Positions 8,433-64,000 of a stretch of DNA of 64,000 bases are shown here, piece after piece (within the stretch, counting starts at the first letter, position 1; every line of letters starts with the position of its first letter). This DNA is from Raja brachyura. Taxonomy: Eukaryota. Where the stretch lies: positions 36,704,001-36,768,000 of the forward strand of contig OY740805.1 of NCBI GenBank assembly GCA_963514005.1, written 5' to 3'. The notes under the pieces were generated by a model. That model had not been told where the DNA came from, ran no database searches, and saw nothing but the letters and a program-made list of their open reading frames with translations. Position numbers and translations under genes: made by a program.

Positions 8433-8475
8433 ATGCAGTGGAGTGTGGTCGCTTGGTCATGTCTGCTGTTGTCTG
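8433..8475 (+). CDS. Gene A leader (signal peptide) exon, MQWSVVAWSCLLLS-G
   Basis: ATG at 8433, hydrophobic peptide, phase-1 donor G|gtaggt matching the phase-1 V exon; paralogous leader at 25831; upstream acceptor (cctag, 8418) suggests a non-coding first exon. Confidence 0.85.
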
Positions 8476-8484
8476 GTAGGTTTA

Positions 8485-8517
8485 CACACACGCACGCGTA
8501 CGCAGACGCAGACGCAG

Positions 8518-8602
<85 letters not shown>

Positions 8603-8607
8603 CACAC
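8485..8607. repeat. (CA)n microsatellite in the leader-V intron
   Basis: Directly visible. Confidence 0.95.
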
Positions 8608-8696
8608 GTAGATTATGTACATAGGTATAATGGATGGATTTGACTGGGTGGGTGGAAAGGCCAGAGCCGAAAATATAATATTATTTCTGGTTTCAG

Positions 8697-9029
8697 GTGC
8701 TGGTGGATCCGATGAATCGATCATACAATCACCGAAGCAGATCACAGTTACTGAAGGCGGGACTGTGCGGCTAAACTGTGCTGTTGTTGACAAGACAATC
8801 CGTTCAATTGGGGGCATTAGTTGGTACAAAGATGCGGGAACTCGTACCATTTCCAATGAGCGCGGCGACTATTATGGTCGCGTTTTGAAATATAGTTCAC
8901 CGGGAACCCTCAATGAATCAATCGAAATCACTGACATGAAAATGACCGAGACAGGAAGGTATTATTGCCGAGTGAGAGTTTTCTTCTTGCGAAGATATTG
9001 GGGCCACGGCACAGAAGTCACTGTCACAC
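8697..9029 (+). CDS. Gene A Ig V-set exon (NKp30/NCR3-like, joined VJ)
   Basis: tttcag| ... C|gtaagt, 333 nt, phase 1-1; canonical B-strand Cys, ISWYKD Trp, YYC and WGHGTEVTV J-like motif. Confidence 0.92.
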
Positions 9030-9477
9030 GTAAGTTTGCGTATTCTTAACTTTGTCTTTAAAGGCATTCCTAACACCGGTCACCACACGCCTCAACAACA
9101 AAGCTTTGTCAGATGAGATTTAGGCACATGAATTCATTATTTAGGCACAGAAAATGATTACAAATATAGGAACCAGCGGTCCAAGTTTAAGAATAAGTGG
9201 TGGGCAATTTAGGGCTGAGATGAGGAAAAAACTTTCATGCAGAGAGTTGTGAATCTGTGGAATTCTCTGCCACAGAAGGCAGTGTAGGATGATTCACTGG
9301 ATACTTTGAAGATAGAGCTCTTAAACATAGCAGAGTCAGGAGTTATGTGGAGTGGGCAGGAACGGAGTACTGATTTTAGATGGTCCACCATGATCATATT
9401 GAATGGCGGTGCTGGCTCAAAGGGCCAAATGGCCTACTCCTGCACCTATTTTTCTATTTTTATTTTTTTAATTACAG

Positions 9478-11135
9478 ATGATCTTCCTTCCACATATCCT
9501 GTACTTATTTCAATAAATACCGATTTATCTTCCTAATTTTTTTTTAAAGAAACTTGACACTCTGATCAAAAAATGTATTTGGGATTATAAAACAATTATA
9601 AAGCCTAAATAAATTGGCGGATTGGCTCTCCCCAATGTTTTACAGTATTACTGGGCAACGAATATTAAAAACGTAATCTATTGGATGGACAACACATGCC
9701 AACAGTTAATAACGGAGAGAGAGGATTGTTCGCCTTTTAATATAGGCGCCGTTCTTCTCTCTCCAATAAATTTGAATAAAACACTATATGAAAATATCCG
9801 ATTGTCCACAGTACCCTACGAATCTGGAAACAAGTGAAGTCAACTCTTAAACTGAGACATGTATCTTTTCTTTCACCAATTGCCAACAACTCTCGGGTCA
9901 AGCCGTCTATTTTAGACAAAACGTTCACACATTGCGAATGATTAGGAATTAAAAAACTCCGAGATCTTTATGAGGGGAACTCTTTTCCCATTTCAAGAAT
10001 TACAGTCGATATATTATCTGAAAGGTAGCCAATATTTTAGATACCTTCAAATACGAGACTATCTGAAATCATATATCAAAGACTATCAATCTACGTTGCC
10101 AGACACACTAGACGAATGTATGAATAGGAACTCGGATTCAAACAAGTTAACATCATATCTGCATAGCACCCTTTTAAATATACAAACGCCATCGTCAGAA
10201 TTAATTAGAAGAGCTTGGGAAGATGAGCTTGGCCTAAAAAAATTAAAAGACAGATGGGAGGAAAACCTTCTATATATACACAACTGTTCTCTTAACGTAA
10301 GGCATTCGTTAATTCAAATTAAAATATCACACAGACTATATTATTCAAAGTCTAATCTGAATAAGATATTTCCAAATGTATCTCCTGTATGTGATAAATG
10401 TCTCCTTCAGGAAGCAAAGGAACCCATTCCTTTGCCTCGTATAAATTTACATAATTTCTGGAGAGGATTTTTAAAATTTTTCTTCTAAAACACTAAAAAT
10501 AAAATTGGATCCCGACACGGAACTGACCACTCTAGGTACTTCAGAAGCCTGTTCTCAGCTATCACTATTTCCAAGACGTTTCTTAATTATGGCCTGACAA
10601 CGGCCAAAAAACCGAATACTTAGATTTTGGAAACATACTCTTAAGGTGTGGATTATAAACATGTCCGAGACACTACATCTTGAAAATATTAGACTTACTT
10701 TTGGCAGAAAAAAACAGATCATTTTTCCAAGACAAGGACACCATTGATTGATTTCTTACAAGGATAGTATGGCGCAACACAACTTTGGATTTAAATCTAA
10801 TTATGGGTTGGGTGAAGTGGGTGGGGAGGGACGAGAGGCAGGTCTACCATCACTTTTTCTTTCTTTTTTTCTTTTTGTCCTTTTATTTCTATTCCTCTCT
10901 TCTTTCTTTCTTTTATTCACTCTTTGGCTACAATACTTTGGTAGTCTAGTGGTCCTATCTTTGCGCATCTCACTTTTTTGCTTTCTTGCTGTTTCTCCTG
11001 TCTTTTCTTCTAATTCAAGTTAAAAAGTTAACATTGAAGCTGTGCAATAACTGTATAATTTTATATGCCGTTGCTTCTACTCTTGTACATTTGCTTCAAA
11101 TAAATAAAAATATTTTCAAAACAAACAAAAAAAAA
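9478..11135 (+). mobile_element. 5'-truncated L1-clade LINE with A-rich tail
   Basis: ORF2 C-terminal motifs (YYWATN, NCSLNVRHSLIQ, CDKC); AATAAA plus poly(A) at about 11099-11135. Confidence 0.85.
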
Positions 11136-11953
11136 CAATGTGCAAGATCAATCATAGAGTGACATAGTGATGCACCGTGGAGACAGGCCCTTCGACTCAA
11201 CTTACCCACAACGTGCCCAATAATGTCCCAGCTATCCTAGTCCCACCTGTGTGCGTTTGGTTCTTCGAAACATGTCCTATCCATGTACCTGTCCAACTGC
11301 TTCTTAAACAATGGGATAGTCCCAGCCTTTACGACCTCCTTTGGCAGCTTGCGCAATACACCGAGCTTTCTCTGTGGGGAAAAAATTCCCCTCGGATTCT
11401 TACTAAATCTTTTCTCCTTCACCATGAACCTCTGGTCCTCGATACCCCTACTCTGGGCTAGTGATCGTGGATCAGTATACAGGACCAAGAGAGAATAGGT
11501 GCACAATTTGAAATAATCCGTGCCGATTCATGGTCGCTTTCGACGTTGCAACATCCATGAATTTTGAAGCAGAACATCGGAATAACAAACATAAGACCGT
11601 AAACTGGCGGGGAAGATGGTGGAACTGTAAGGGAGCCATTTTTTCCCAACGAAGAGCAATCCAGTTCCCTCTTAATTCACATGCACGCTACGGTCACTCC
11701 GACTGCTCCATATTAGGGGGTAATTTTCAGCTACTAATTACCTATCAGGACGCACGTCCTTGGTATGAGAGAGGACGCAAGGAAAAACGCAGGCAATATG
11801 TACAACCTGCACACAGACAGACAGCATCCGAGGTCAGGATCGAACCCGGATTGTCGCGAGTAAACGAGACTGTCAAGATAGGTGTAATGGGTGGCATTGA
11901 TTGGCTGGACCTAAAGGCCAGCGCCGAAACTAAAATATTATTTCTGGTTTCAA

Positions 11954-12271
11954 GATCTGTTGCACAAACACCTTCTAATGTCAACGTTACTGAAGGCGGG
12001 ACTGTGCGGATTAATTGTACATTTGTTGGCAAGACAATTAGGGCCTTCAGTTGTTACAAAGACGAGGAAACTCGTGCCGTTTCTAACACGGGCGGCGACT
12101 ATTAGTTCACTTGGAATTCTAAAAGAAATAGAAATAGTTCACTTGGAATTCTAAAATAATCCATCGAAATCACTGACCTCAAAATGAACGATACAGGAAA
12201 GTATTACTGCCCAGTGACTGTTTTCCCAGTGGAAATATATAATGGCCACGGCACAGAAGTCACAGTCACAC
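11954..12271 (+). pseudogene. Pseudo-V exon (psiV2) of the same family
   Basis: Acceptor tttcag mutated to tttcaa (11953); core Trp changed to Cys (SCYKD); TAG at 12103 from a 22-nt internal duplication; donor at 12272 intact. Confidence 0.88.
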
Positions 12272-13501
12272 GTAAGTTTGCGTTATCTTAACTTTATCCT
12301 AAAAAACATTCTTAACACCGACCACCACACGCCTCAACAACGAAGCATTGTCAGTTCAGATTCAGGCACAGAAATTAATTATATATGTAGGAACCAGGAG
12401 CCCCAGTTTAAGACTAAGGAGTAGGCCATTTAGGACTGAGGAGGAAAACCTTTTTCACCCAGCGAGTTGTGAATCTGTGGAATTATCTGCCTCAGAAGGC
12501 AGTGGAGGTCAATTTTCTGGATGCTTTCAAGAGAGAGTTAGTTGGTGCTCATAAAGATAGCGGAGTCAAGAGATATGGGGAGACGGCAGGAACGGGGTAC
12601 TGCTTGTGGATGATCAGCCATGATCACAGTGTATGGCGGTTCTGGCTCGAAGGGCCGAATGGCCTACTCCTGCACCTGTTGTCTATTGTCCATTGCCCAC
12701 ACCGGCCAACATGTCCCGTCGATACTAGTCCCACCTGCGTGCGGTTGGTCCATATCCATTGAAACCTGTCCAATCCATGTACCTGTCCAAGTGCTTCTTA
12801 CATGATGGGATAGTCCCAGCCTCAACGACCTTCTCTGGCTGCTTGCTCCATACAGCGACCATTTTCTCCATCGAAGAGCAATCCAGTTCCCTCTCAATTC
12901 ACATGCAAGCTACGCCCACTCCGACTCCTCTATATATCAGGGGCAATTTACAGCAGTTCATTACCTATCAGGACGCACGTCTTTGGGAGGAGAGATGAAG
13001 CAGTAACGCCCAGGGGAAACGCAGGCAATAACACGGAGAACGTGAAAACTCCACACCGGCAGTCAGCATTGAGGCCAGGCTGCTGGCCCACAGAGGCAGT
13101 AGATGCTTCGGCTATTTCCTTAAGCAATCAAGGTGGAGGTAAAAGGAACTGCAGATGCGAGATTACAAACAAAAAGACGCAAAGTGCTGGAGTAACTCCG
13201 CGGGCCACGCAGCATTTCTGGAGAACATGGATACGACATATTGTGGGATGCTGAAGAAGGGTGCCGACCTGAAACGTCGCCTATCCATGTTCTCCACAGA
13301 TGCTGCCTGACCCGTTGACTTATTCCAGCACTTTGTATTCTGTGTAAGATTTCCACATCTGTTGTTCCTTTTCATGCAAATGAACTGTACGAATTGGTCT
13401 ACGTTTAGAATGATAGTGGGAACATTTCGGTGTATAAGAATGGAAGGAAACAGAAATAAACTGGGAAAGTAATTTGTGAACTTGATGTTTTATTCCTACA
13501 G

Positions 13502-13653
13502 GCCCGAGCCTTGTAGAAAGCCCTGCATGGGGATTACGTTGGCAGCTGCTTGTAATGGGAGTGAAACTTGCAACGTTCATTGTGATCAACGTTATAATAG
13601 TCTTCATCATCCGCTCATGGGAGTCTTGGGGATTTGCCAGCCGGAGGAAATAA
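13502..13653 (+). CDS. Gene A stalk/TM/short tail exon with intramembrane Lys (activating type): RPSLVESPAWGLRWQLLVMGVKLATFIVINVIIVFIIRSWESWGFASRRK*
   Basis: Acceptor ttttattcctacag|, open in phase 1, about 24-residue hydrophobic span with Lys (13564-13566), stop at 13651-13653, donor gcg|gtaaga at 13674/13675; conserved paralog at 28605. Confidence 0.85.
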
Positions 13654-25830: not shown

Positions 25831-25866
25831 ATGCAGTGGAGTGTGGTCGCTTGGTCCTTTCTGCTA
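25831..25866 (+). CDS. Gene B leader exon (3' end lost in assembly gap), MQWSVVAWSFLL...
   Basis: Near-identical to the gene A leader, same upstream acceptor (ctacag, 25816); runs into Ns at 25867. Confidence 0.82.
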
Positions 25867-26256
25867 NNNNNNNNNNNNNNNNNNNNNNNNNNNNNNNNNN
25901 NNNNNNNNNNNNNNNNNNNNNNNNNNNNNNNNNNNNNNNNNNNNNNNNNNNNNNNNNNNNNNNNNNNNNNNNNNNNNNNNNNNNNNNNNNNNNNNNNNNN
26001 NNNNNNNNNNNNNNNCCACAAACGCACACGCACACNNNNNNNNNNNNNNNNNNNNNNNNNNNNNNNNNNNNNNNNNNNNNNNNNNNNNNNNNNNNNNNNN
26101 NNNNNNNNNNNNNNNNNNNNNNNNNNNNNNNNNNNNNNNNNNNNNNNNNNNNNNNNNNNNNNNNNNNNNNNNNNNNNNNNNNNNNNNNNNNNNNNNNNNN
26201 NNNNNNNNNNNNNNNNNNNNNNNNNNNNNNNNNNNNNNNNNNNNNNNNNNNNNNNN
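25867..26256. other. Assembly gaps (25867-26015 and 26036-26256) at a CA-repeat
   Basis: N runs. Confidence 1.
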
Positions 26257-26468
26257 AAGAGAGGGAGGTGGTGTTGGGGGGGGTTAGATAGTATCGGAGA
26301 GGGAGAGGCAGAGGGAGAGGGAGTGAATGTGTGGTGGAGAGAGAGGTGATAGTGGGGGAGGGGAGAGAAAGAAAGAGAGTGAGTGTGGTAGAGAGAGAGG
26401 TGATGGTCGGGAAGGGGAGCTGGAGAGGGAGTTGGATTGAGAGAGGGGCGAGAGATGGTGGGTTGCGG

Positions 26469-26471
<3 letters not shown>

Positions 26472-26536
<65 letters not shown>
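26472..26536. repeat. (GA)n microsatellite
   Basis: Directly visible. Confidence 0.95.
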
Positions 26537-26542
<6 letters not shown>

Positions 26543-27172
26543 GAAGAGTGGGTGGGTGGATGAGTGTAGATTCATAAGAGCAGCGGATGGCTCATTATCG
26601 CCGCCAGGTTTATTCTGTCATCCATTTAGACCCCGGGGTTGAAAGTGGGATGTTTAGATTTTTCGAAATTTAGTGGTGTCATATAAATAGCGAGAAAGAT
26701 TCTTCAAGAAAGCAGCATGAAACAGATCAAATAAAAAATAGGCGACGTGTCAGCAAACTGAATTTAACGTCGGCAAAGGCGAGCTCCACGCTAATTCGTC
26801 CACACCGCGACGCTATCCCATTTTAGCATCAACTCACAACACATCAGAAGACATTTACAGAGGGCTATTAACCGACCTACCTGCACGTCTTTGGAACGTG
26901 GGTGGAAACCGGATCACCCGGAGAAAACCCGCGAGGTCCCTGCGAGAACGTGAAAACACCACACAGACAGACAGCACCCGGGTTCAGAATCGAACCCGGG
27001 TTGTCTCATGACATGTAAGAGGCGTCCCACCAAGTACTTGAAATGCTGAGACATGGAAAGGCCATGATCCTAACCCGAGTAAATGGGATTGTGTAGATAG
27101 GTGTAATGTATGGCATTGACTGGGTGGGCCGAAAGGCCAGCGCGGAAACTATAAGATTATTTCTGGTTTCAG

Positions 27173-27505
27173 GTGCTGTTGGAGCCAATGAATCGATCAT
27201 ACAATCACCGAAGAATATCACAGTTACTGAAGGCGGGACTGTGCGGATAAACTGTACATTTGTTGGCAAGACAATCAGTTCAATTGGGGCCATTAGTTGG
27301 TACAAAGACGTGGAAACTCGTGCCGTTTGCAACACGAGTGGCGACTATTATGGTCGCGTTCAGAAAAATAGTTCACCGGGAATTGTAAAAGAATCCATCA
27401 AAATCACTGACCTCAAAATGAACGAGACAGGAAAGTATTACTGCCGAGTGACTTTTTTCACGGGGGGAATATATAATGGCCACGGCACTGAAGTCACAGT
27501 CACAC
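27173..27505 (+). CDS. Gene B Ig V-set exon (NKp30/NCR3-like, joined VJ)
   Basis: tttcag| ... C|gtaagt, 333 nt, phase 1-1; INC, ISWYKD, YYCRV and GHGTEVTV motifs. Confidence 0.93.
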
Positions 27506-28604
27506 GTAAGTTTGCGGTACCTTAACTTTATCTTTACTGTTCCAAAAAACATTCCTAACACCGGCCACCACACGCCTCAACAACGTAGCTTGGTCAGTTC
27601 AGATTTAAGCACAGAAATTCATTATATATGTAGGGGCCACAGTTTAAGAATAATCGGTAGGCCATTTTGGATCCACATGAGGAAAAACATTTTCACCCAG
27701 AGAGTTGTGAATCTGTGGAATGATCTGCCCCAAAAGGCAGTGGAGGCCAATTTTCCGGATGTTTTCAAGAAAGAGTTTGATATAGTTCTTAAAATAGCGA
27801 AATCAAGGGATACGAGGAGAATGCAGGAACTGGGTACTGATTGTGGATGATCAGACATGATCACAGCGAATGGCCGTACTGGCTCGAGGGGCAGAATGGC
27901 CTACCTTTGCGCCTATTGTCTAATGTCTATTGCCCTCTCCGGCCAACATGTCCCAGCAACACTCGTCCCACCTTCGTGCCCTTGGCAACAACATGGAGAA
28001 CGTGCACACTCCACACCGGCAGTTAGCATTGAGGCCAGGTTACCGGCCCTCAGAGGCAGTAGCTGCTTCGGCTATTCCCTCAAGCAACCAAGTTGGAGAT
28101 AAAGGGAACTGCAGATGCAGGGTTACAAACAGAAAGATGCAAAGTGCTGGAGTAAATCCGCGAGCATCTCTGGAGAACATGGATAGGTCACATTGTGGGA
28201 TGCTGAAGAAGGGTGCCGACCTGTAAAGTCGTCTATCCATGGGAGTGGGAGATTGCAACGTTCACGTGGTTCGCCCTGTTTCGACGAATGCAAACAACCC
28301 GACGTGCACAATCAAATAAGATCAAATAGAACAAGTTGTTCTACAACTTTAGGCAATGCACGCCATACGCAAGAGGAAGAAGCCTATCCATGTTCTCCAG
28401 AGATGCTACCTGACCCGTTGAATTAGTCCAGCACTTTGAATTCTATGCAAGATCCCCACATCTGTTGTTCCTTTTATGGCTAATGAAGTGTGGGAATTGA
28501 TCTCCGTTTGGAATGATAGTGGGAACATTTCATTGCACAGGAATGGAAGGAAACCAAAATAAACTGGGAAAGTAATTGGTGAACTTGATGTTTTATTCCG
28601 GCAG

Positions 28605-28765
28605 GCCGGAGCCTTGTAGAAAGCCCTGCGTGGAGATTACGTTGGCAGCTGCTGATAATGGGAGTGAAACTTGCAACGTTCATTGTGATCAACGTTGTAA
28701 TAGTCTTCATCATCCGCTCATGGGAGTCTTGTGGATTTGCCAGTCGGAGAAAACGAAGTCTATAA
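28605..28765 (+). CDS. Gene B stalk/TM/short tail exon with intramembrane Lys (activating type): RRSLVESPAWRLRWQLLIMGVKLATFIVINVVIVFIIRSWESCGFASRRKRSL*
   Basis: Acceptor ttttattccggcag|, open in phase 1, Lys codon 28667-28669, TAA 28763-28765, donor acg|gtaaga at 28778/28779. Confidence 0.87.
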
Positions 28766-31830: not shown

Positions 31831-31890
31831 ACCATAAGTGTTGAACTCCCTACATATTGAATAAACCCATCCAGCAGATCAAACCAAGAA
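31831..31890 (+). other. Gene B terminal (3'UTR) exon with poly(A) signal; codes HHKC* if joined directly to V
   Basis: Acceptor tatttcattttctcag|, AATAAA at 31860-31865. The 3' end is approximate. Confidence 0.65.
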
Positions 31891-32104
31891 AAGCAAATCC
31901 ATTATTGAATCTAGATTAGTTCAGTCAGCTGTGCTGACACTGTTGTAGGTCAACACCCATTTGGGGTAATGTAATTTGTGAATTCTTACACCCATTAAAA
32001 CTCCACATTACCTTCGTGTTTGTTCATTCCTGGCACCGACAGTTTCAAGTCAGAGTGGTTACATTTCAAGCGTATCAATAGACAATAGAAAATATTTAGT
32101 ATAC

Positions 32105-42724: not shown

Positions 42725-43057
42725 GTGCTGTTGGGTCCGACGAATCGATCATACAATCACCAAAGAATATTACAGTTACTGAAGGCGGGACTGTGCGGAT
42801 AAACTGTGCATTTGTTGGCAAGACAAACAGTTCAATTGGGGCCATTAGTTGGTACAAAGATGTGGAAACTCGTTCCGTTTGCAACACGAGTGGCGACTAT
42901 TATGGTCGCGTTCAGAAATATAGTTCACAGGGAATTCTAAAAGAATCCATCGAAATCACTGACCTGCAAATTAACGAGACAGGAACGTATTACTGCCGAG
43001 TGACTGGTTTCACAGGGGGAATATATAATGGTCACGGCACAGAAGTCAGAGTCACAC
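42725..43057 (+). CDS. Gene C Ig V-set exon (NKp30/NCR3-like, joined VJ)
   Basis: tttcag| ... C|gtaagt, 333 nt, phase 1-1; 97 of 111 aa identical to the gene B V by manual alignment. Confidence 0.93.
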
Positions 43058-45011: not shown

Positions 45012-45143
45012 CGTCTGATCGGGGCGGCAAGGATTCAAATCGAAATTATATCTTTCCGCTTGTATTTGCACTCTTGGGCGTAGCGTTGCTTGGGATGGTA
45101 TTGATTCTCATCATTTACCTGCGACGCCTCGGTCGATCTCCAG
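45012..45143 (+). CDS. Gene C stalk/TM exon, uncharged TM: PSDRGGKDSNRNYIFPLVFALLGVALLGMVLILIIYLRRLGRSP
   Basis: Acceptor tttttatttctcaacag|, 132 nt phase 1-1, donor CAG|gtaata; hydrophobic span followed by an RR stop-transfer. Confidence 0.9.
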
Positions 45144-45511: not shown

Positions 45512-45735
45512 TGTTAAAGAAGGAACTGCAGATGCTGGAGAATCGAGGGTTACACAAAAAGCTGGAAAAACTCAGCGGGTGCAGCAGCATCTAAGGAGCG
45601 AAGGAGATAGGCGACGTTTCGGGTCGAGACCCTTCTTCAGACTGCGGAAGGGTCTCGACCCGAAACGTCGCCTATCTCCTTCGCTCCTTAGATGCTGCTG
45701 CACCCGCTGAGTTTTTCCAGCTTTTTGTGTAACCC
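45512..45735. mobile_element. Young Penelope-derived inverted terminal repeat insertion forming a perfect hairpin, with TSD
   Basis: Arms 45547-~45635 and ~45647-45735 are exact reverse complements; ttcctgcatctag duplicated at 45499-45511 and 45736-45748. Confidence 0.75.
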
Positions 45736-47446: not shown

Positions 47447-47478
47447 ATAAAGGTACCGGAACAGAACATGGGGCGAAG
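47447..47478 (+). CDS. Gene C cytoplasmic mini-exon (DKGTGTEHGAK)
   Basis: ttacag| 32 nt AAG|gtatgt in non-repetitive DNA; converts phase 1 (TM exon) to phase 0 (last exon) exactly as required. Confidence 0.75.
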
Positions 47479-52084: not shown

Positions 52085-52459
52085 GAAAATGACACATCGA
52101 AAAATATAATCTATGCTGACCTGAATATGGACAAGTCGAACAGGAATCACCGTTCCGGTCATTGTGCCAGAGGGAATGGGGCACGGGTCAAAAACCCAGG
52201 CGGAGCCGGACCTCTGTCGGCGGCAGGCGGAAATGAAGACGCGGTCGTGTACTCCGCCTTGAGACACCCCGCTCCGATGGAGAATCGAGCTTCGGCGGCA
52301 GGTGGAAGGGAAGACCCGGTCGTCTACTCTGCCTTGAGACATCTGGCTCCGACGGACAATCCAGCATCGAGCAAGCAGAAGAAGAATACCAGAAGAAAGG
52401 ACCAACAGGTTGTGTACGCAACCGTGAATGCTCAACGTCCACCAGTTCTGCATCACTGA
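52085..52459 (+). CDS. Gene C last exon: cytoplasmic tail with four ITIMs (IIYADL, VVYSAL x2, VVYATV)
   Basis: gcattccag| phase 0, open to TGA 52457-52459; motifs at 52106-52123, 52244-52261, 52319-52336 and 52409-52426 fit (I/V)xYxx(L/V). Confidence 0.9.
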   Translation, partial: ENDTSKNIIYADLNMDKSNRNHRSGHCARGNGARVKNPGGAGPLSAAGGNEDAVVYSALRHPAPMENRASAAGGREDPVVYSALRHLAPTDNPASSKQKKNTRRKDQQVVYATVNAQRPPVLHH

Positions 52460-52597
52460 ACATTGGGAATGAGATGACTGTACTAGACGGCGGATCTCTC
52501 TTAGTTTAGTTCAGTAACGCGGAAACAGGCCCTTCGGGCCCCCGAGTCTGCGCCGACCAGCGCTACTAGCACTAACCTACACACATTAGGGGCAATT

Positions 52598-55500
52598 CTT
52601 CTTTTTTTTTGCACTGTTCTTGTTTTTTTTGATAAACATTTTTATTAGAAGTAACTACATATCGTAATTAAAATATTTCATGTCTATCAGTCACACATTG
52701 TTAATGTTATCATTTGCTTATTGACTCTGTTTCTAGTTTTTTTTATTGATGGAGAATAAGAAATAAAATAGAAGCATGATAACGAAGAATTGAATAATTT
52801 ACTAATAATACAACATTGGAGATAGGTTCGTAAATTATAAAGTATAACTTTTCATCTAATCCTGAGTTCGAGCTGCAGTCAGGTTCCCGTGCTGAACCAA
52901 TCTTCCCCTTCAAATAGTCAATAAATGGAGACCATATTCTGACAAAAAGTTCTTGTTTGACCATTAAGACAAGTCCAGTAATTTCCAAATGTAAGGTGTT
53001 CGACATTTCCATAATCCACATTGTAATTGTGGGGTTTATAGGACCTTTCCAAAATGTTAATATTATTTTCTTCACAGTTATTATACTATAGTTGAGAACG
53101 TTTATTTGGCTTGTTGCAAGTGTTAGGCTTTGTTCTGATATTCCTAGTGTTATTAGTTTTGAGTCGGGATCCAATTGGGTGTTGACAACTTCAGAAGTTA
53201 TTCTAAAAATATTCGTCGAGAATTTTTTGATTTTTATTCAGTTTACGAATGCACGAGTTAAGTTAGCCTCTAAATGCTTACATTTATCACAGATAGGAGA
53301 CATATGTGGGAAGATTATATTTAGTTTTGTATTGGAGTAATGTAATCTGTGTAATAATTCAAATTGTATTAAAGAGTGTCTGGCATTTAACGAGCATTGA
53401 TGTCTATGTTGCAAACTATCGTCCCAAATATCTTTCATTATTGATTGGCCTAGTTCATTTTACCACGTTTGCCTATATAATTCCGTCGGTGGTACCTCAT
53501 TATCTAATATGATATTATAAATATGAAATATTTATTTATGTGTATGAGGATGTTTATTCAAATATTCATCAAGAGTTTCTGGATCTCTAATACTATAGTC
53601 TTGTGTATTTGTTTTAATATAATCTCTAAGTTGTAAATATCTCAAAAAAGTCATTTGTGTGGAGTCCATACGTCTGCTGTAACTCCTGAAATGAAAGAAA
53701 GGTGCCTTTCTGATAGAGATGCCCCACCTTTTAAATTCCATAATTTTTCCATTGTGTGAAACTTTTATCCAACATAGAAGGTCCAAATGAAGGGTAATTT
53801 ACAATGGGATGAATAAGTCTTTTTTCATTGTTTCCAGATTCGTATACCACTATATATTATAGGGTTTTACTATAGGATTTGTTGTTCAATTTTGTGCGAG
53901 CAAACAGAATCGAACTAATTTCATAGGGTAAACAGTCTTCCTTTTCCATCTTTAACCAGTCAGGTTGCTGGTCCTTTTCTACCAACCAAAATTTCATATT
54001 TTTAATGTAACTGCCCAGAAAAAAAACACAACATTCGGTAAAGCTATACCTCCATTTGTCTTTGTTTTACATAAATGTTTTTTGCATATTCTATGATTCT
54101 TATAATGCCAAATAAAATTAGTGACGAAGGAAGATATATCGGAATTGATTGAAAGAGGTACAATAATTGCGGTGGAAAAATACATTTTATAGCATTAATT
54201 CTACCAAACATTGAGATAGGAAGTGTTTTCCAATACTGAATATTCTTGTGTAGTTTATTCAGTAAAGGGGGGAAGTTTAATTTGAATAAAGAAGTATATG
54301 TCTTAGTTACATAAATTCCTAGATATTTAAGTTTTTCATTAACTATTTTAAATGGGGATTGTTGAATTCCGTTATTGGCATGATTTCGCTTTTATTCCAA
54401 TTAATTCTGTATCCCGCGAACAAACCGAATTGAGTTATTAGAATAATAGATTTGGAATACAAATTTCTGGGTTTGTAATGAAAATTAATACATCATCTGC
54501 ATATAAATAATTTTTATTCACAGTGTCTTTAGTATTATACCCGTGTATTTCTGGATGGACCCTAACACCTTCTGCTAGTGGCTCAATAGCGAGAGCGAAT
54601 AATGATGGAGATAGCGGGCATCCTTGGCTACAACCTCTAGATGTTACATTTAGTTGATAACATTTGGTTTGTTAATATTCTAGCTGTTGGGTTAGTATAT
54701 AAAGGTTTTACCCATGGGCAGAACTTCTCGCCCAATTGACATTTTTCCGTCACCGAAAATAGATAGGGCCATGCCACCTGATCAAATGCTTTCTCGGCAG
54801 CTAACGAAATAATTGCTAGGTCTACGTTTGTAATTCTCTTTGAGTATATCATATTGAATAATCGTCTCAAATTATAAGATGAGTAAAGTTTTGGGATAAA
54901 ACCTGTTTGGTCAGGGTGTATTAATTTAATAATCACTGTAGTTAATCTTTGTGCTAGGATTTCAGTTAATATTTTCTGATCAGTATTTAAGAGAGCTATT
55001 GCTCTATATGAACCTGGGTCTTCAGGGTCCTTATCTGTTTTTGGTATTTGTTTTGGTAAGTGTTATTATAGATTCATTTAACGTTTCTGGCAGTTTATGT
55101 TGAGTATAAGTGTACACATACAGTGGTTGTAAACGTGGGAAGATCATATCATATTTTTTAAAATAAAATTCAGAACTTATACCTTCGAGCCTAATAGACT
55201 CTTCAATATATTTTACTGTTATTTCAGAACCAAGTCATTCTCTCTCCTTCAAATCAAAACCTTTAAGTTTACATTTATGTAAGAATGCTTCTATTCCTGC
55301 CGAGTGTACGGTCGTTTTGGCTCAGTAAAGATTTTGATAATATTGCAGGTATCTCTCATTGATATCCGTGGGCAGTCCAGTTTTCGAAGTTGACGTGCTA
55401 ATAGTTGTTGTGGTTTGTCACTGAATTCAAAATGTAATTGTTTAGTATGCTGATAAAATATTATAACTTGAGCTGAGTATATTGTATTTTATTCATATTT

Positions 55501-58500
55501 CAGTACTGCAATTTTATTGTGTTTTATCATAGATGGCGAAGCCGCATTTTCTATGTCTAATTGCCTTATTCCCCTTTCCAGTATCTGTTGCTTTGCCCGA
55601 TTCTCTTTATTATGAAATGCTTGGGAAGAGATTAATGCTCCTCGAGCAAATGCTTTAAATGTTTCCCAGAGAGGTGGGCAGGCGTTCCAGGGCGGTCATT
55701 AGTCTCAAAAAACATATTAATCTGTATAGTAAGATATTCCTGACATCGGTTTTCATTTAACATTTGTGGGTTAAGGCTCCATTGTGTCTGTTTCTCGGCC
55801 ATTCCATTTAATTTAATCATAAATGTTAAGGGTGCATGGTCCGAGATTATAACATTATGATATTTCGAGTTGCAGACAAATGGGATGAACTCTACTAAAA
55901 AAGAGTCTATTCTTGAATAGGTTTTATGTACCGGTGAATAAAATGAGCATTCTCGTCCGATTGAGTTTTCGATTCTCCAGACGTCCTTGATGTTAGTAGT
56001 ATTAATATATGAGTTCAGAAATTCACTTGACTGAGATTTAACATTTCTTTGGCTTGATAATCTGTCTAAATAAGTGCCTAGTGTACAATTTAAGTCAACT
56101 ACAATTATTAATTTGTGTTGTGTGAGTTCCGGAATTGCATTGAATGTTTTCTTGAAAAACAAGAGATTATTAAAATCTGGTCCATAAACATCAAGAAGAA
56201 TCACTTTTTTTTGCGTATAGCCCACTTATTAATACAATCTATCTGCCATCAATGTCCGTTATAATTAATGTATGCTTAAAAAGTATCCCTTTACGGATTA
56301 ATATTGCAACTCCTCTGGATTTATGTGAGAATGGGGAATGATACGTTTTAGCAATCCATCTTGTGTTCAATCTGTGTTGTGCTTCCTTTTAAGGTGAGGT
56401 TCCTGGAGGAATATTATATCTGTTTTAAGTGATTTAAATGTGCTAATTCTTTACCTCTCTTGATTGGTTCATTAATTCGCTAAACATTCCAACTACAAAA
56501 TGTGATTCCTTCACCCCCAATTTTCATATTAACGTCTTGCATCTTATGTTTAGGGTGGTCTATAAAAGAACAGATGGCTCAACATACTAAACCCGACATT
56601 ACACCCGAACATCAGATCGATTAGTTTATAAATATCGTAGGTCTTTCTCCCGTACATATCTCCTTAGGTAAAACTTATAATTACATTCAAAATTAAAATT
56701 ATAATAAGGCGTAAAGTAAAGAGGGTGATAGAATAGATGGTTAGTGAAGTGCAAAAGAAAGGAAAAAACTACATCTATAATTCGTGTAGTTAGTGATCGC
56801 CACACTAACGTGGCTAGCCATCTAAAGACTTCCGTAGCCTTTGAAACAAAAATTACTAGCTCCATGCTTTCCTCAAAAACAAATTAAATAAAAACAATTT
56901 ATTGGGGAGGGGGAAAACATTTTAAGATCCAAAATACTTATAATCCATTAATAAAAAAGTTATTATTCTAAAGATACAATATTAATTTCATATTTATCTA
57001 AAAAAAAGTTTTTTAATCGAACCCCCCCCCCCCCCAAAACCTTATTAATAAATTGCCTAAATCAAACCCCATACTTCATACTTTAATTAATTCTAAGCAA
57101 GCCAATGAATGCTAATTAGTAATAATTCGTAATAATAATTAGTAATTACAAGTAATTGTGATTGCTAGTAATCAATAATTAATTATCTTTCATAATAATA
57201 CTAAAATATAAATGTAATATATCAATAGGAAAAAACTTGCTCAACTATCATTATCAATTTTCATTAGTCCTTAAGTATAACCATTTAAAGTTCAATCAGT
57301 TCTCTACAGGGTCACGATGTTCGGTGACGTCGGGTAGTTCATGAGCATTGTTCAGTCATCAGTCATATTCTCAATGTTCTGGGCGAAATCAAGTGCTTCG
57401 TTATGGTCAGTGAAGAGACCTTCCTCATGTCTCTTCCTCATGTAGGTGACTCTCTGTGTTGCGGGATACATCAGGCCATATCTCAGATCTGCTTTGTTCT
57501 TAAGTATTCTTCTCTTCTCTGTAAACTGCGCTCTCTTCCTGGAGAGCTCAACAGGATAGTCTTTAAAGATGCTGATCCTTCTCCTTCAAATATGAGCTCT
57601 CTGTTACGGACAATTGTCTTCATCATGACATCCAATACATGGTCGTATTGCACCTTCACTATCAGTTGTCTTGGGGGGGGGGCGTCTACCCGTGGGCCGC
57701 GTCTCAGCGCTCTATGTGCTCGACCTAGTAAAGGTTTTTGATCCAGATTTAAGACTTTTTTTAATGAGCCCGCAGCAAATTCACGGTGGACTCTGCTACC
57801 CTCTCTTCCTTCTAGGACGTCGACAAATATTAAATTCTGGCGTCTCTGACGTCCCCCCGAGTCAATACATTTTTCCGTTATTTTACTCAATAAGTCTGAT
57901 AAACGCTTGTTCTCCAGGAGATGTTTTTTGTAGTTTCAGCACTTGTCGCAGCAATTTCCTCTAATTGAGTTATTGGTGTACTTTGTTGATCTAATGCCCC
58001 AATGATGGGATACAACCAAGCGTTAAAGCTGGATTCCATCACATTGATTTTACCATTTACCTCTTCAATCTGTTGAGCAAGATTTTCTTCCATTGTTATC
58101 TTCCAGGCTTTCAATACTTCGTGAACAGTGGAGGTGATTTATTCTATTAAATTCTCCTTTGAAAGATTGTTCTTCTTTAAGTTCTTCTTTAAAGTTCTGT
58201 TTTTCATTAAAAAAATTCAGTTGTCCTTCTACATTTGCAATTTCTAGAGATAGAAAACTTCGAAGGTCTTCTATTTCTGTTTTCTTTTTACCGTGTTTTC
58301 TTTGACACATCTGCCTGGGACGACGTTAAAACTGAGCCCGAGACTTCAGTCGGGCCTACTTCTTTCGCCGGTTGCCAGGGCTCAACGGCCTTTTTCGTCA
58401 TGGGTGGGTATGTTGCATAGACATACCGGATGAGTCCCGCGCCTGATGACGTCACTCGCTCGTTAGAAGCAGCTGGCGCAATAACAGCAGGTCAGTCCCT

Positions 58501-58584
58501 TTCTTTCTCCCCCGTTTTCAGTGGTCTTTGCGTGGAGCAAACTTGCGCTGGTCTCTATCCCTCCATAGCTCCACCTGAAATCCC
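52598..58584 (-). mobile_element. Near full-length decayed L1 (ORF1 about 57480-58310, ORF2 about 52740-56540) inserted just downstream of the gene C stop
   Basis: ORF1 RRQNLIFV and RAHRAL motifs; ORF2 [31 protein letters not shown]; poly(T) at left; splits a SINE (caatt at both 52593 and 58585). Confidence 0.9.
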
Positions 58585-59232
58585 CAATTTACAATTTTTG
58601 CCGAAGCCAAATTAAACCACAAACCCGAACGTCTTTGGAGTGTGGGAGGAAAGCGGAGCACGCGGGGAAACACACGCGGGTAACGCGGCGAAATTAAAAA
58701 GTCCGTGCAGACAGCACCCATAGTCAGGATCGAACCCGGTAGCTTGTTCCATGCGCCCAGCCAATTAAATGTAACATTTCCAAGTTTGCGGGTAACACTA
58801 AATTGGGTGGCAGTGTGAGCTGCGAGGAGGATGCTATGAGGCTGCAGGGTGACTTGGACAGGTTGGGTGAGTGGCCAGATGCATGGCAGATATAGTAAAA
58901 TGTGGGTTATAAATGCAGTATAAATGTAGTATAAAAGGCCGAATGGCCTACTCCTGCACACATTTTCTATGTTTCTACGTTTCTAATTAATTCCAACAGC
59001 TTTGGAGCAGTCTAATAGTTATTTCTGGAAGACTTGTATTATGATAAGACACGAGTGCCATTGCATTGAATTAAATTTACTAACAAATGACCATTCGTGT
59101 AAATATCGATGGAAATATTGCCTATGCTATTTGTGTGAGGGATTTTGAAGGAGGGAGATATATTATGACATGCGAATGGTTGTTATGCATCAACAATTCA
59201 GTGTTGCCTGTGGTTGAAATATTCCATACTTC

Positions 59233-59238
59233 AATAAA
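59233..59238 (+). terminator. Candidate ancestral poly(A) signal of gene C (mirror TTTATT at 62613-62618)
   Basis: AATAAA in a unique AT-rich segment, conserved in both arms of the inverted duplication. Confidence 0.4.
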
Positions 59239-60249
59239 GTTTTGAAATGATATCACACCGATTATTTAATATCGAGTTCTGATTTCCTTCCGCCTTTACG
59301 CCAATTGACTCCAACGTTCTCTCCGTGACCGCGTGAGTTTTCCCCGAGATCTTCTGTTTCCTCCCACACTCCAAAGATATACAGTTTTGTAGGTTAATTG
59401 GCTGGTTGTATGTGTAAATTGTCCCTGGTGTGTGTGATCATATTGAATGTCGGTGCTGGCTCGAATGGCCGAATGGCCGCCTACTGCACCTATTTTTCTA
59501 CCTTTCTATGTTTTTCTATGTGTAGGACAGTGTTAATGTGTGCGGGGATCGCTGGTCGGCGTAGACCCGGTGGGCCAAAGGGCCTCTTACCGCGCTGTAT
59601 CTCTAAACTAAACTAAACACAAGACGTGATTAATTTACTACTTAGCGCTGAAGGTAAATTAAGATTTAGTTTCGAGATACAGCGCGGAAACAGGCCAGTC
59701 GGCCTAGCAGGCCCGCGCCACCCAGTGATCCCCGCACACTTACACCATCCTACACCCACTAGGGATAATTTAATTTTTTATTTTTTTTATTTTAACGTTT
59801 ACCAAACCAATTTAACCTACAAACTTGCACGTCCGTGGAGTGTGGGAGGAAACCGAATTTCTCGGAGAAAATCCACGCAGGTCACGCAGAGAACGTACAA
59901 ACCCCGTACAGACAGCGCCCGTAGTCGGGATCGAACCCGGGTCTCTCGCGCTATGAGTCAGTAGCTCTACCGCAACCTCATCGGTAAGCAAAATATGTAG
60001 TTCGATAGCGAACTACATTTGACGCTCTACAACGCTCTATGTGCTGTAAGAACATTTAAGAGACATTTGGACAGGGCAGGTTTGGAGAGATACGGAGCAT
60101 AAACGCAGGCGGTTGGGACGAGTGTCGATGGGGCATCCTGGTCGACATGGGCAAGAAATAATATAGAGCCGATCAATCCAGCCAGAAGTGTAAGTGCAGA
60201 GTACCCCCTTGTGAAATTGTACAGAGAAAAAGATAAAGGGTCTTGGAGA

Positions 60250-60280
<31 letters not shown>

Positions 60281-61096
60281 TGTACACCTAGAGGCACTGA
60301 TATTAAGAAAACACTTTTTCACTAATCTCATCTGAAATGGAGGTAAGAGACAACATTTCCGACCTTACCTCAGACTGGAGAAGGGTACAGACCTGAGATT
60401 ACCTCATCCATTTCCCTCTATAGATGCTGCCTGACCCGGTGACTTCCTCCAGCACTTCGCATTTTCCTCAAGATTCCTAGAATTGCAGCTCCTCGTGTTT
60501 CCAGGACGTTGACGATTTTCAATGATGGTACTTAATTGTCACAGTGACTTTTTTGTTTGGCAGCATTCGAATTTGCACTAAAACAAAGAGCAGTACAGCA
60601 CAGAGACGGGCCTTCGGCCCACAATGTTTGTGCGGAACATGATGCCAAGTTCATCTGATCTAATCTGCCCATACAGCATCCATTTCCCTCTGATCCCTGC
60701 ACTCGCTTGAGTCGTTTCGGGTCAGATCTCTTCCTCAGACATCGAAGACACTTCTCACCATAGATTTGTCCCGACCGGAGGTAAACAAAAATGCTGGAGA
60801 AACTCAGCGGGTGCAGCAGCATCTATGGAGCGAAGGCAATGTTTCGGGCCGAAACCCTTCTTCAGACCGACCGGCACCTCTTCATTGTGAAGAAGGGTCT
60901 CGACCCGAAACGTCGCCTATCTCCTTCACTCCTTAGATGCTGCTGCACCCGCTGAGTTTCTCCAGCTTTTTGTGTAACCCTCGATTCTCCAGCATCTGCA
61001 GTTCCTTCTTTAACACCTCTTCATTGTTATCCGTCACCAGAAGAGGGCGCTCCAACCCAGAATTATGGAGGGATGGAAACAAGCCCTTCAGCCCAA

Positions 61097-64000
61097 CTTG
61101 CCCATGTCGACCAAGGTGCCCCATCTACACTCGTCCCAACCGCCTGCGTTTATGCCCCGTATCTCTCTAAACCTGCCCTGTCCAAATGTTTCTTAAATGT
61201 TCTTGCAGCAAATAGAGCGTTGTATAGCGTCAAATGTGGTTCCCTGTCGAACCACAGATTTTGCTTACCTTTGAGATAGCGGCAGAGCTGCTGCCTCACA
61301 GCGCCAGAGACCGGTGTTCGATCCCGACTACGGGTGCGGTCTGTACGGAGTTTGCACGTTCTTCCCGTGAACTGCATGGGTTTTCTCCGAGATCTTTGGT
61401 TTCCACCCATACTCCAAGGACGTTGAGGTTTGCAGATTAATTGGCATGGTGCATGTAAAATTGTCCATAGTGGATGTAGGATACACACCAATGTGTGGCG
61501 GTGCGAGTTCGATGGGCCAAATGGCCTCCTCCTGCACCTGTTTTCTATGATCGTGCTAATGTGCGGGGATCGCTGGATGGTGGGACAACGGGCCTGTTTC
61601 TGCGCTGTATCTCTAAACTAAACTCTCTTGTTTGCGAAGGCATCTTCCTCCCTCACCTTCTTCCCCCAGCTCCGGCCTCAAAGACCAAGAAAGGCAAAGG
61701 CAACAATCGCCATGAAACGCCAGCCATTTGCAATTCACGTCTCCTACCCGAGATGACACACCACTGATCCTTCATCTTCACCAGATCTACATCTATCAAC
61801 GCTCTGCCCAACGATACGGTGGGTGTACCTTCACTGGAAGGACTGTAATTGTTCAATAAAGTGGATCATTCAGTTTAATTTAGTTTGGAGATAGAGCGCG
61901 GAAACACGCCCTTCGGCCCACCGAGTCCGCGTTGACCAGCGATCCCCGCACACTAACACTATCCTACACCACCAGGGACAATTTTTACATTTACCAAGCC
62001 AATTAACCTACAAACGTGTACGTTGTTGGAGTGTGTGAGGAAACCGAAGTTCTCGGAGTAAACCCACGCAGGTCACTGGGAAAACGTACAAGTGCGCGGG
62101 GATCGCTGGTTGGCGCGGGTCCGCTGGGCCGAAGGGCCTGTGTCCGCGCTGTATCTCTAAACTAAATCTTAGTTTGCCTTCAACGATGACTAAGTAGTAA
62201 ATTAATCACGTCTTGTGTTCAGTTTAGTTTGAGTTTAGAGATACAGCGCGGAAACGCGCCCTTTGGCCCACCGGGTCTTCGCCGACCAGCGATCCCCTCA
62301 CACATTAACACTGTCCTACGCATGGGAAAAACACAGAAACGTAGAAAAATAAGTGCAGGAGTAGGCCACTCGGCCCTTCGAGCAAGCACCGGCATTCAAT
62401 ATGATCATGCACACCAGGGACAATTTACACATACAACCAGCCAATTAACCTACACACCTGTACATCTTTGTAGTGTGGGAGGAAACAGAAGATCTCGAGG
62501 AAAACTACACGCGATCACGGGGAGAACGTGTCTTTGTTGGTGTAAATTGCCGTAAAGGGGAAAGGAAATCAGAACTCGGTGCCAAATACTCGGTGTGATA
62601 CATTTCCAAAACTTTATTGACGTATTGAATGTTTAAACCACAGGTAACACTGAATTGTTGATGTTTAAGAACCATACTTATATCATAATATCTCTCCCTC
62701 CTTCAAAATCCCGCAAACAAATAGCATAGGCAATATTTCCATCGATATTTACACGAATGGTCATTTGTTAGTAAATTTCATTGAATGCAATGGCGCTCGT
62801 GTCTTATGAAAATAAAAGTCTTCCAGAAATAAGTATTAGATTGTACCAAAGTTGTTGGAATTAATTAGAAACATAGAAAATAGGTGCAGGAGTAGGCCCT
62901 TCGGCCCTTTATACTGCATTTATGCTGCATGTATACCCGACATTTTACTGCATCTTCCATGCATCTGCCACTCACCCAACCGATCTAAGTCACCTTGCAG
63001 CCTCATAGCATCCTCCTAGCAGCTCACACTGCCACCCGGCTTTGTGTCATCCGCAAACTTGGAAATGTTACATTTCATAGAATCATAGAAAATAGATGCA
63101 GGAGTAGGCCATTCGGCCCTTCGAACCTGCACCGCCATTCAATATGATCATGGCTGATCATCCAACTCAGTATCCTGTACCTGCCTTCTCTCCATACCCC
63201 CTGATCCCTTTAGCCACAAGGGCCACATCTAACTCCCTCTTAAATATAGCCAATGAACTGGCCTCAACTACCTTCTGTGGCAGAGAATTCCACAGACTCA
63301 CCACTCTCTGTGTGAAAAATGATATTCTCATCTCGGTCCTAAAATACACCCCTTATCCTTAAACTGTGACCGCTTGTTCCCAACAGCGGGAACAATCTTC
63401 CTGCAGCTAGCCTGTCCAACCCCTTAAGAATTTTGTACGTTTCTGTATGATCCCCCCTCAATCTCCTAAATTTCAGCGAATACAAGCCGAGCCTATCCAG
63501 CCTTTCTTCAGATGGAAGTCCTGCCATCCCAGGAATCAGTCTGGTGAACTTTCTCTGTACTCCCTCTCTGGCAAGAATGTCTTTCCTCAGATTAGGAGAC
63601 CAAAACTGTACGCAATACTCCAGGTGTGGCCTCACCAAGACCCTGTACAACTGCAGTAGAACCTCCCTGATCTGGAACTCAAATTCTTTTGCTATGAATT
63701 TATTGGGTGGGTGCATGGAACAAGCCACCGGGTTCGATCCTGAAAACGGGTGCTGTCTGCACGGAGTTTTTAGATTCTCCCCGTAACCGCGTGGATTTTC
63801 CCCGGGTGCTCCGGTTTCCTCCCACACTCCAAAGACGTTCGGTTTCGTGGTCTAATTTGGCTTCGGCAAAAATGGTAAATTGTCCCTAATGTGTGAAGAA
63901 TAGTGCTAGTAGCGCTGGTCGGCGCGGACTCGCGGAGCCGAAGGGCCTGTTTCCGCGTTACTAAAATAAACTAAGAGAGCGCCGCCGCCTAGTACAATCC
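61097..64000 (-). repeat. Right arm of an inverted segmental duplication (left arm 52475-52597 plus 58585-60155)
   Basis: E.g. 58981-59170 is the reverse complement of 62680-62870; 63880-64000 is the reverse complement of 52475-52597. Confidence 0.9.
63075..63695 (-). mobile_element. CR1 3' fragment specific to the right arm
   Basis: LVRPHLEYCVQFWSP motif; absent from the left arm at about 58768. Confidence 0.85.

Follow-up and report, generated by a model that had tools for sequence, protein, structure and literature searches.

The window, which is the 64 000-nucleotide stretch of Raja brachyura DNA analysed here, probably contains the axis about which a block consisting of one activating and one inhibitory NKp30/NCR3-like gene was long ago duplicated in inverted orientation; the mirror arm carries an intact gene model, gene D, whose product is likely an inhibitory receptor forming a pair with that of gene E, its activating-type neighbour. 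The cluster has the order A, B, C, D, E, F, in which A, B and E have a lysine-containing transmembrane (TM) exon (Lys-TM), C and D are ITIM genes converging upon each other and F is a remnant; coordinates above 64000, given for genes D, E and F, continue the numbering of the window beyond its end. A preliminary description of the window had predicted a second, convergent ITIM receptor gene within a larger cluster, and this gene was found.

The 33-mer quoted in that description is present at the end of the window, with its partner beginning 16 nt past the TGA of gene C (52457-52459), and the paralogous ITIM exon that had been expected to end at about 64016-64018 on the minus strand was located at 64465-64016, where its stop codon, a TGA, occupies exactly the expected bases (64018-64016). 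Homology did not stop right after 64000 but reached into this exon, and the minus strand past 64000 encodes IIYADL, three copies of VVYSAL and VVYATV, with TM and V exons further on. The start of the gene D 3′ UTR (63878..64000, minus strand) is the partner of the gene C 3′ UTR, and the coding exons, all on the minus strand, are the ITIM tail exon, a 32-nt exon (67524-67493), an uncharged TM exon (70506-70369), three VJ exons (73699-73304, 77365-77033 and 79758-79429) and a leader (80383-80341). This exon order gives a seven-exon model of 573 aa, stop-free, with AG at all acceptors and GT at all donors, and its predicted product comprises a leader, three VJ domains, a neutral TM segment, the segment from the small exon and five ITIM-consensus motifs, the surplus of motifs deriving from a 75-nt tandem unit. 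A Pfam scan of the ITIM tail gave no match. One contig of run X5 aligned to 73340-73699, ending exactly at the V acceptor, which would be an isolated hint of splicing; that run was only guessed to be RNA and the contig was not counted as evidence.

Comparison of the tail exons of genes C and D gave a dN of 0.059 and a dS of 0.232, the latter possibly inflated by CpG sites (dN/dS about 0.25; Fisher p 1.8e-4), and across the TM, small and tail exons (539 nt) there were no frameshifting indels, compared with 4.3 expected from the flanking DNA (p 0.014). The coding exons of genes D and C do differ by indels of 6, 9 and 75 nt, none of which shifts the frame; the additional ITIM unit is one of them. 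Gene D is a prediction from genomic sequence and the cluster does contain dead pieces, namely the second V of gene A and remnant F, so that gene D could be seen as a duplicate that is silent or has died recently, in a mirror arm that is structural debris. We consider this very improbable, as all seven exons have stayed open with canonical splice sites despite about 13% neutral divergence, with the low dN/dS of the tail and the in-frame indels likewise speaking against it. Among the V exons, many pairs have a dN/dS close to 1, as would be expected if constraint were relaxed but equally under diversifying selection. In the third V of gene D the donor has moved by 72 nt via short tandem copies, and this exon may therefore be skipped.

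On the plus strand, gene A (8433..13653) is of the activating type with a leader at 8433-8475, a VJ exon at 8697-9029 and a Lys-TM exon at 13502-13653, its second VJ (about 11938-12270) being dead with two stops and a lost acceptor, and gene B (25831..28765), also of the activating type, has a leader at 25831, a VJ exon at 27173-27505 and a Lys-TM exon at 28605-28765. Gene C, on the same strand, has a VJ exon (42725..43057), an uncharged TM exon (45012..45143), a cytoplasmic exon of 32 nt running from phase 1 to phase 0 (47447..47478), an ITIM tail exon of 124 aa with four ITIM-consensus motifs (52085..52459) and the start of its 3′ UTR (52460..52597, the partner of 63878-64000 plus 15 bases beyond). 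The 32-nt exon is required for an in-frame join between the TM exon and the tail exon, and an equivalent segment is found in Pristis P0004. Beyond the window, on the minus strand, activating-type gene E has a leader (103581-103539), two VJ exons (102950-102621 and 97735-97376) and a Lys-TM exon (96103-95946), and remnant F is a VJ at 132514-132206. Exactly three Lys-TM exons were found in the whole genome, all within this cluster, and as these three are separate, a protocadherin-like arrangement, in which numerous V cassettes would use a single common constant region, was dropped.

No leader exon was visible for gene C, although an N run upstream (42114-42476) may contain it; gene C may thus be incomplete, and if so the pair of inhibitory genes would amount to a single working one. 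One possibility that we rate as rather doubtful is that the extra V exons serve as alternative cassettes, with gene D yielding one-, two- or three-V isoforms and gene C, if it has lost its leader, perhaps being spliced from the gene B leader into an inhibitory form of B. Every V exon is of phase 1-1 and any one can therefore be skipped in frame, each starts with a signal-peptide-like AVGS, and the distance from the upstream LINE end to the post-leader anchor is only about 367 nt in gene C but exceeds 1 kb in A and B; the NCBI models of rays, however, include two-V and three-V members of this family (P0157 and P0156), and the N run offers gene C a place for a leader of its own. This question concerns isoforms and leaves the existence of gene D unaffected.

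Regarding the duplication itself, the preliminary description had given 61097-64000 as the reverse complement of 52475-52597 plus 58585-60155, with a spacer between the arms. Coordinates, strand and spacer held, but the relation is not one of plain reverse complement, being composed of four colinear inverted blocks: 61097-61450 against 60155-59801 (86.2% identity), 62090-63078 against 59741-58764 (86.8%), 63699-63882 against 58768-58585 (87.6%) and 63878-63999 against 52597-52476 (88.5%). Together they cover about 1645 of the 2904 right-arm bases, leaving two stretches without a match (61451-62089 and 63079-63698, the latter a LINE fragment), and with only 15-39% low-copy bases per block the arms are largely repeat-derived. 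The left arm by the axis (58585..60155, plus strand) is the 3′ flank of gene C past a retrotransposon insert, with an AATAAA at 59233, and the right arm (61097..64000, minus strand) is the 3′ flank of gene D, with AATAAA at 63704 and 62618. Between them lies an unduplicated spacer of 941 bp (60156..61096) with a poly-G run, a SINE piece and a small palindromic repeat, and its junction with the left arm is crossed by a single contig in run X9 and by a single contig in run X10. The insert (52598..58584, minus strand) is a decayed non-LTR retrotransposon of about 6 kb, which we take to be L1-like; it sits in a SINE of the gene C 3′ flank, occurs in the left arm only, and one of its five scanned ORFs gave an RVT_1 match (E 1e-12).

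The colinear inverted chain continues from 33023-60155 against 93644-61097 out to 26944 against 97960, so that the duplication spans at least 33 kb per side; no colinear inverted homology was found past about −5.3 kb and 110.7 kb. Non-coding identity between the arms is 87.0% (7981 columns in 11 blocks), from which it follows that the inverted duplication is old. An assembly fold-back palindrome was ruled out by this identity together with the private insertions of the arms, and a chance pairing of SINEs by the block order, the shared junctions and the 33-kb continuation. In the cluster beyond the window there are no assembly gaps, the closest being at 171844. Elsewhere in the window, too, there are pairs of LINEs in inverted orientation, about 1 kb long and 81% identical.

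The preliminary description had further suggested that read-through of either gene would make a long hairpin. Such a hairpin is physically possible according to the folding models, in which a putative RNA from 61450 to 59801 forms 319 arm-to-arm pairs at −926 kcal/mol, compared with −524 to −554 for six shuffles, and one may ask whether the convergent layout is itself functional, with long dsRNA across the axis coupling or limiting the expression of genes C and D through ADAR, siRNA or nuclear retention. That suggestion did not fare well, since it needs transcription more than 4 kb past the gene D stop and through AATAAA sites, and from gene C additionally across the 6-kb antisense retrotransposon. 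An AATAAA lies about 300 nt past both stops (52762 for C and 63704 for D) and a further one is kept in both arms (59233 and 62618), the arms have drifted at a neutral rate (86-89%) and acquired insertions, the predicted 3′ UTR of gene D folds no better than six shuffles (−410 compared with −398 to −424), and the window has inverted LINE pairs at other places too. We thus hold a functional role of the hairpin to be most improbable of all the alternatives considered. The tail-to-tail layout would rather be a by-product of the inversion, with each mRNA likely terminating at a poly(A) signal ahead of the axis, and more notable than the hairpin are the activating partners with their homogenised V exons.

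The V exon of each inhibitory gene groups with the activating neighbour of its own arm. V-domain amino acid identity is 100% for D3/E1, 91.6% for D1/E2 and 87.3% for B/C, and in a nine-row DNA tree of V exons these pairs were supported at 100/100, 100/99 and 95/95, respectively. With groups chosen after inspection of the tree, AU tests rejected C+D1 (p 1.5e-6) and B+E2 (p 7e-8), the pairs that are orthologous by position, as well as an inhibitory clade (p 4e-79), with C+D2 rejected only marginally (p 0.047). The similarity is greatest in a block of 12.5 kb at 99.4% between genes D and E (78900-91400 against 102085-114628; 69 mismatches in 12,493 columns), which includes the leader and first V exon and gives protein-identical V domains. 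Exchange layers of three ages, at about 93%, 94-96% and 99.4%, overlie the 87% inversion, and as judged from these sequences the within-arm grouping is a paired-receptor pattern apparently maintained by gene conversion.

The 99.4% block could instead stem from a segmental duplication of recent date, or from two haplotypes of a copy-variable locus that the assembly has joined, as its divergence of 0.55%, with 14 mismatches in the 7.2 kb closest to the V exon, is in the allelic range. We find this improbable, although less so than a dead gene D. The junctions E-to-D and B-to-C, one in each arm, align colinearly at 76-86%, which makes the tandem layout old, the upstream region of gene E has an old counterpart upstream of gene A (76-89%), and the block terminates with sharp edges within older homology of 89-96%. 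The B/C and D1/E2 pairs, moreover, repeat the within-arm grouping at greater age, and no assembly gap lies in this part of the cluster. Our preferred explanation is therefore still exchange after the inversion, by gene conversion or unequal crossover among neighbours of the same orientation, whereby the inhibitory ectodomain would come to resemble that of the activating gene in its own arm, the latest event having presumably copied 12.5 kb between D and E, a stretch that takes in the leader, the first V exon and the region upstream of them.

Neighbours in the cluster thus have highly similar ectodomains (D3/E1, D1/E2 and B/C) together with what are, by sequence, opposite signalling modules, an ITIM tail versus a charged TM segment with a short tail. 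Gene D, with three VJ domains, an uncharged TM segment and five ITIM-consensus tyrosines, would recruit SHP-1/2-type phosphatases once phosphorylated, as would gene C with its one visible VJ domain and four motifs, and A, B and E, in which the TM segment carries a lysine and the tail is about ten residues long, would associate with an adaptor bearing an ITAM. Because the D/E copying would have carried the leader and first V exon along together with the region upstream, we propose that D and E may be co-expressed and bind the same ligand with opposite signals, by analogy with SIGLEC11/SIGLEC16. These two are neighbours, one inhibitory and the other activating, in which gene conversion has made the upstream region and the ligand-binding exons alike, as proposed here for D and E, although they belong to an unrelated family and lie head-to-head with a similar region of about 3 kb (PMC5701461). 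The converted partners D and E, in comparison, are in tandem with a tract of 12.5 kb, and the inverted pair of the skate consists of two inhibitory genes.

As to family identity, the V domains are NKp30/NCR3-like as judged by sequence and modelled fold. A Foldseek search of the PDB with a D3 model (pLDDT 92.9) placed NKp30 at ranks 1-3, with shark VNARs close behind by a small margin, and NKp30 was the best single-domain PDB sequence match in a profile search, the profile containing NCR3-like relatives. The Pfam V-set match had an E of 1e-12, and the domains are germline-joined VJ, with GHGTEV in the V-core exon in all seven aligned exons (Cys-Trp-Cys, GxGT G strand). Close relatives are named NCR3-like by NCBI (P0004, P0009, P0015 and P0019), and a 17-row clade with such batoid proteins had support of 98/98 in a tree that included one out-of-frame row (L054); when rebuilt without L054 and several distant rows, the NCR3-like grouping was weaker. 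The ITIM tail matched P0004 (E 1.3e-8), and the Lys-TM segment is common to skate genes A, B and E, P0002 and P0009. Human NKp30 (NCR3; PDB 3noi, 3pv6 and 6yjp), which binds B7-H6, likewise has a non-rearranging VJ-type domain and is the closest solved fold, although identity to it is only 27-29%. The human receptor has a single IgV and an arginine in the TM segment and is devoid of ITIMs, whereas skate C and D have ITIMs and no TM charge; the activating members A, B and E share the charged TM residue, as lysine. Gene D is not classed as NKp30 proper, the mammalian NCR3 orthologue, since it has three V exons and five ITIM motifs and its TM segment is without charge. Human NKp30 is MHC-linked, and the skate cluster (36.7 Mb) shares its contig (C25) with 7 of 12 MHC_I domain matches (18-24 Mb), at least 12.6 Mb off; a search for MHC class II beta gave zero matches anywhere.

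Among elasmobranchs, ITIM-type NCR3-like proteins of Pristis pectinata (XP_051899803.1, P0004), Heterodontus francisci (XP_067865303.1, P0019) and Mobula hypostoma (P0158) resemble the skate genes in having a leader, a VJ domain (45-55% identical), an uncharged TM, a short linker and a VVYATV-like tail end. The ITIM-type close relatives examined (P0004, P0008, P0017, P0019, P0026, P0035, P0068, P0079 and P0158) have one V and fewer motifs, unlike gene D with its three V exons and five motifs from the 75-nt tandem unit. Batoid Lys-TM proteins, from Rhinoraja longicauda (XP_078271940.1, P0002), Hemitrygon akajei (XP_072920818.1, P0009, and the three-V P0156) and Mobula birostris (the two-V P0157), have the same LR(W/S)QL..M..KL TM segment as genes A, B and E, and the skate V domains form a clade of their own with P0002. 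Multi-V forms are thus already in automated annotation, but these proteins come without genomic context or activating/inhibitory pairing.

NKp30 is among the few NK-type receptors traceable across jawed vertebrates, and to our knowledge, NK-type receptors of cartilaginous fish are poorly described. The general paired-receptor pattern is well known in mammals and is not a new principle, and both receptor types are already present in automated ray and shark annotations, so that the gain lies in the anatomy of the locus and the three-V inhibitory form. In a lineage that lies close to where adaptive immunity arose, the locus offers an activating/inhibitory pair that is well delimited, open to testing and identical in its outer domain. 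Tentatively, and with the odds somewhat against the reading as a whole, skates may use this NKp30-like family as a paired system in the style of KIRs and Siglecs, in which a three-domain inhibitory D and a two-domain activating E would have a promoter region in common and the same ligand-facing domain, copied anew in the very recent past. The role of the activating gene would then be that of a counter-decoy, in the same cells, against a pathogen ligand exploiting the brake, and mammalian NKp30 could be the activating half that survives of a family once paired and linked to the MHC.

Beyond an inverted duplication near the end of the window, the preliminary description had predicted a second, convergent ITIM receptor gene, with its paralogous exon ending at about 64016–64018 on the minus strand (window numbering is continued past both edges). 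Searching the genome (2.7 Gb), with 200 kb before the window and 199 kb after it examined, we found a sole paralogue of the gene C tail, located directly beyond 64000: a minus-strand ITIM tail exon at 64465–64016, with its TGA, as predicted, at 64018–64016. Upstream of this exon on the same strand were an uncharged TM exon (70506–70369) and three VJ exons, termed D1 (membrane-proximal, 73699–73304), D2 (77365–77033) and D3 (79758–79429), followed by a leader (80383–80341). A 32-nt exon was sought because a Pristis pectinata relative (XP_051899803.1) has such a segment and because the phases require one, and it was found at 67524–67493. The resulting gene D model encodes 573 aa without a stop, having AG/GT at every splice site. 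ITIMs recruit SHP-1/2; gene D has five ITIM-consensus motifs versus four in gene C, the additional one deriving from one more 75-nt unit. Comparison of the two tails (dN 0.059, dS 0.232, Fisher p 1.8e-4) shows a substitution pattern of purifying selection, and no frameshift separates the C and D coding exons over 539 nt, with 4.3 expected (p 0.014).

The inversion itself was recovered as four blocks with a 941-bp spacer, at 86.2–88.5% identity and in the places described. The blocks are thus real, but the right-arm stretch presented as reverse complement is covered over only about 1645 of its 2904 bases, the remainder being two unmatched stretches. The left arm is interrupted by a 6-kb retrotransposon (52598–58584; presumably L1-like), in which one of five scanned element ORFs gave an RVT_1 match. 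Both arms are rich in repeats. The best colinear BLAST chain joins 33023–60155 to 93644–61097 (20 blocks, 13,603 columns, 83%), with additional inverted blocks joining 26944–32998 to 97960–93647. The inverted duplication is old. An assembly fold-back artefact was rejected as its source, the non-coding arms being 87.0% identical over 7981 columns (eleven realigned blocks). The junction between left arm and spacer is crossed by one contig in each of two sequencing runs, one of which may come from the source sample. A decayed L1-like family was seen in two copies, 72.7% identical, upstream of gene A (2297–6136) and in the 3' flank of gene C (52784–56500), with the matching mirror-arm sites having neither. 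A palindromic repeat element was also noted in the spacer (60888–61015) and in introns of C (45512–45644) and D (72344–72476); because these share 99% identical stretches, the family was probably active recently.

A hairpin formed by read-through across the axis had likewise been proposed. The predicted fold of such an RNA (61450–59801) is far more stable than those of six shuffles (−926 vs −524 to −554 kcal/mol). The predicted D UTR down to a conserved AATAAA at 62618 nevertheless folds no better than shuffles (−410 vs −398 to −424), and an AATAAA lies about 300 nt past the stop in both C and D, leaving the hairpin unsupported and a functional role for it very improbable.

The tail of a Rhinoraja longicauda protein (XP_078271940.1) led to another kind of TM exon, which encodes a lysine and only a very short tail; it occurs at 13502 and 28605 (plus strand) and 96103 (minus strand), these three being the only ones in the genome search. 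The cluster accordingly reads A (leader, V, dead V, Lys-TM), B (leader, V, Lys-TM) and C (V, TM, ITIM), then, across the axis, D (leader, three V, TM, ITIM), E (leader, two V, Lys-TM; 103581–95946, minus strand) and a V remnant, F (132514–132206, minus strand). Frames are open in A and E, and in B and C from their V exons. Leaders were identified for A, B, D and E; that of C was sought but not found and is either hidden or deleted, since a run of N precedes its V exon and the interval is shorter than in A and B. As a pyrimidine-rich AG acceptor stands 14 nt upstream of each leader ATG (8419–8432, 25817–25830, 80397–80384 and 103595–103582), transcription probably starts at a promoter some way before these sites, with a first exon that is untranslated. 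Between E and F we noted a degenerate (TAAAC)n array of 8.9 kb (about 117500–126400; 742 TAAAC copies, minus strand), with shorter tracts of this repeat downstream of the Lys-TM exons in A, B and E.

From the inversion, the V exon of C should pair with D1 and that of B with E2 (the membrane-proximal V exon of E). A DNA tree of nine V exons instead grouped B with C (95/95), D1 with E2 (100/99) and D3 with E1, the exon next to the E leader (100/100). AU tests, for groups named after the tree was seen, rejected C+D1 (p 1.5e-6), B+E2 (p 7e-8) and an inhibitory clade (p 4e-79), with C+D2 marginal (p 0.047). Neighbouring genes in the same orientation have, we infer, exchanged sequence repeatedly by conversion or unequal crossover. 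The youngest D/E block (78900–91400 vs 102085–114628), taking in upstream region, leader and first V, has 69 mismatches in 12,493 columns and is embedded in older homology of 89–96%; that it is an assembly artefact or a recent duplication seems unlikely. The membrane-proximal V exons of D (73376–73304) and E (97412–97340) end in tandem 36-nt J-end copies. The first donor has changed to CT, so that later donors add a 12–24 aa stalk in frame, similar to an extension in the R. longicauda protein.

The V exon of the cluster genes is a germline-joined VJ domain. NKp30 was the best single-domain match of the family profile and took ranks 1–3 among PDB chains in a fold search with the AlphaFold model of D3 (pLDDT 92.9). 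The closest named protein is from R. longicauda (V domain 68% identical). All ten relatives looked up are from sharks or rays (three named NCR3-like, one SIRP-beta-like, six uncharacterised); the Pristis protein likewise carries the name NCR3-like. Relatives comprise both ITIM and Lys-TM types, and Lys-TM models with two and three V exist in rays. NKp30 proper, as excerpted from PMC6514059, has a single V, a TM arginine and no signalling tail, whereas gene D has three V exons, an uncharged TM and an ITIM tail; on these sequence features it is therefore filed as an NCR3-like relative, not NKp30 itself. According to PMC12227049, NCR3 is a VJ gene that does not rearrange and is linked to the MHC (nurse shark accessions MT914154–914161; see also PMC11599192 and PMC10751288). 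Here, seven of 12 MHC_I domain matches lie on the cluster's contig, all at least 12.6 Mb distant, and the genome search gave no MHC class II match. Further NKp30-like VJ exons occur 0.5–0.9 Mb upstream (contig positions 35816495–35819774, plus; 36193249–36196560 and 36216732–36217037, minus) and include a pair of two-V units that are nearly identical, face opposite ways and are separated by about 375 kb; they may represent a further inverted duplication. One of their V types clusters with a multi-V protein. A divergent open VJ exon at about −32650 to −32326 (plus strand) has AG/GT sites and is 26% identical to the gene C V. Weak V-domain matches elsewhere were at C30:11859896–11860240 and C15:4872505–4872768 (both minus; letters denote contigs), the latter looking like an antigen-receptor V segment.

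Titles and abstract openings yielded no literature on this locus or on paired skate NCR3-like genes; any claim of novelty is limited, as shark NCR3 forms that bear ITIMs or have several V domains may already be described in Kinlein et al. 2021 or its supplements. What the sequence shows is the layout of the genes, their open frames, the selection acting on the tail and the V groupings. Receptors with a Lys or Arg in the TM associate with ITAM adaptors (PMC6514059). Taking SIGLEC11/16 as the model (excerpts of PMC5701461), D and E would, by analogy, be co-expressed and have a common ligand.
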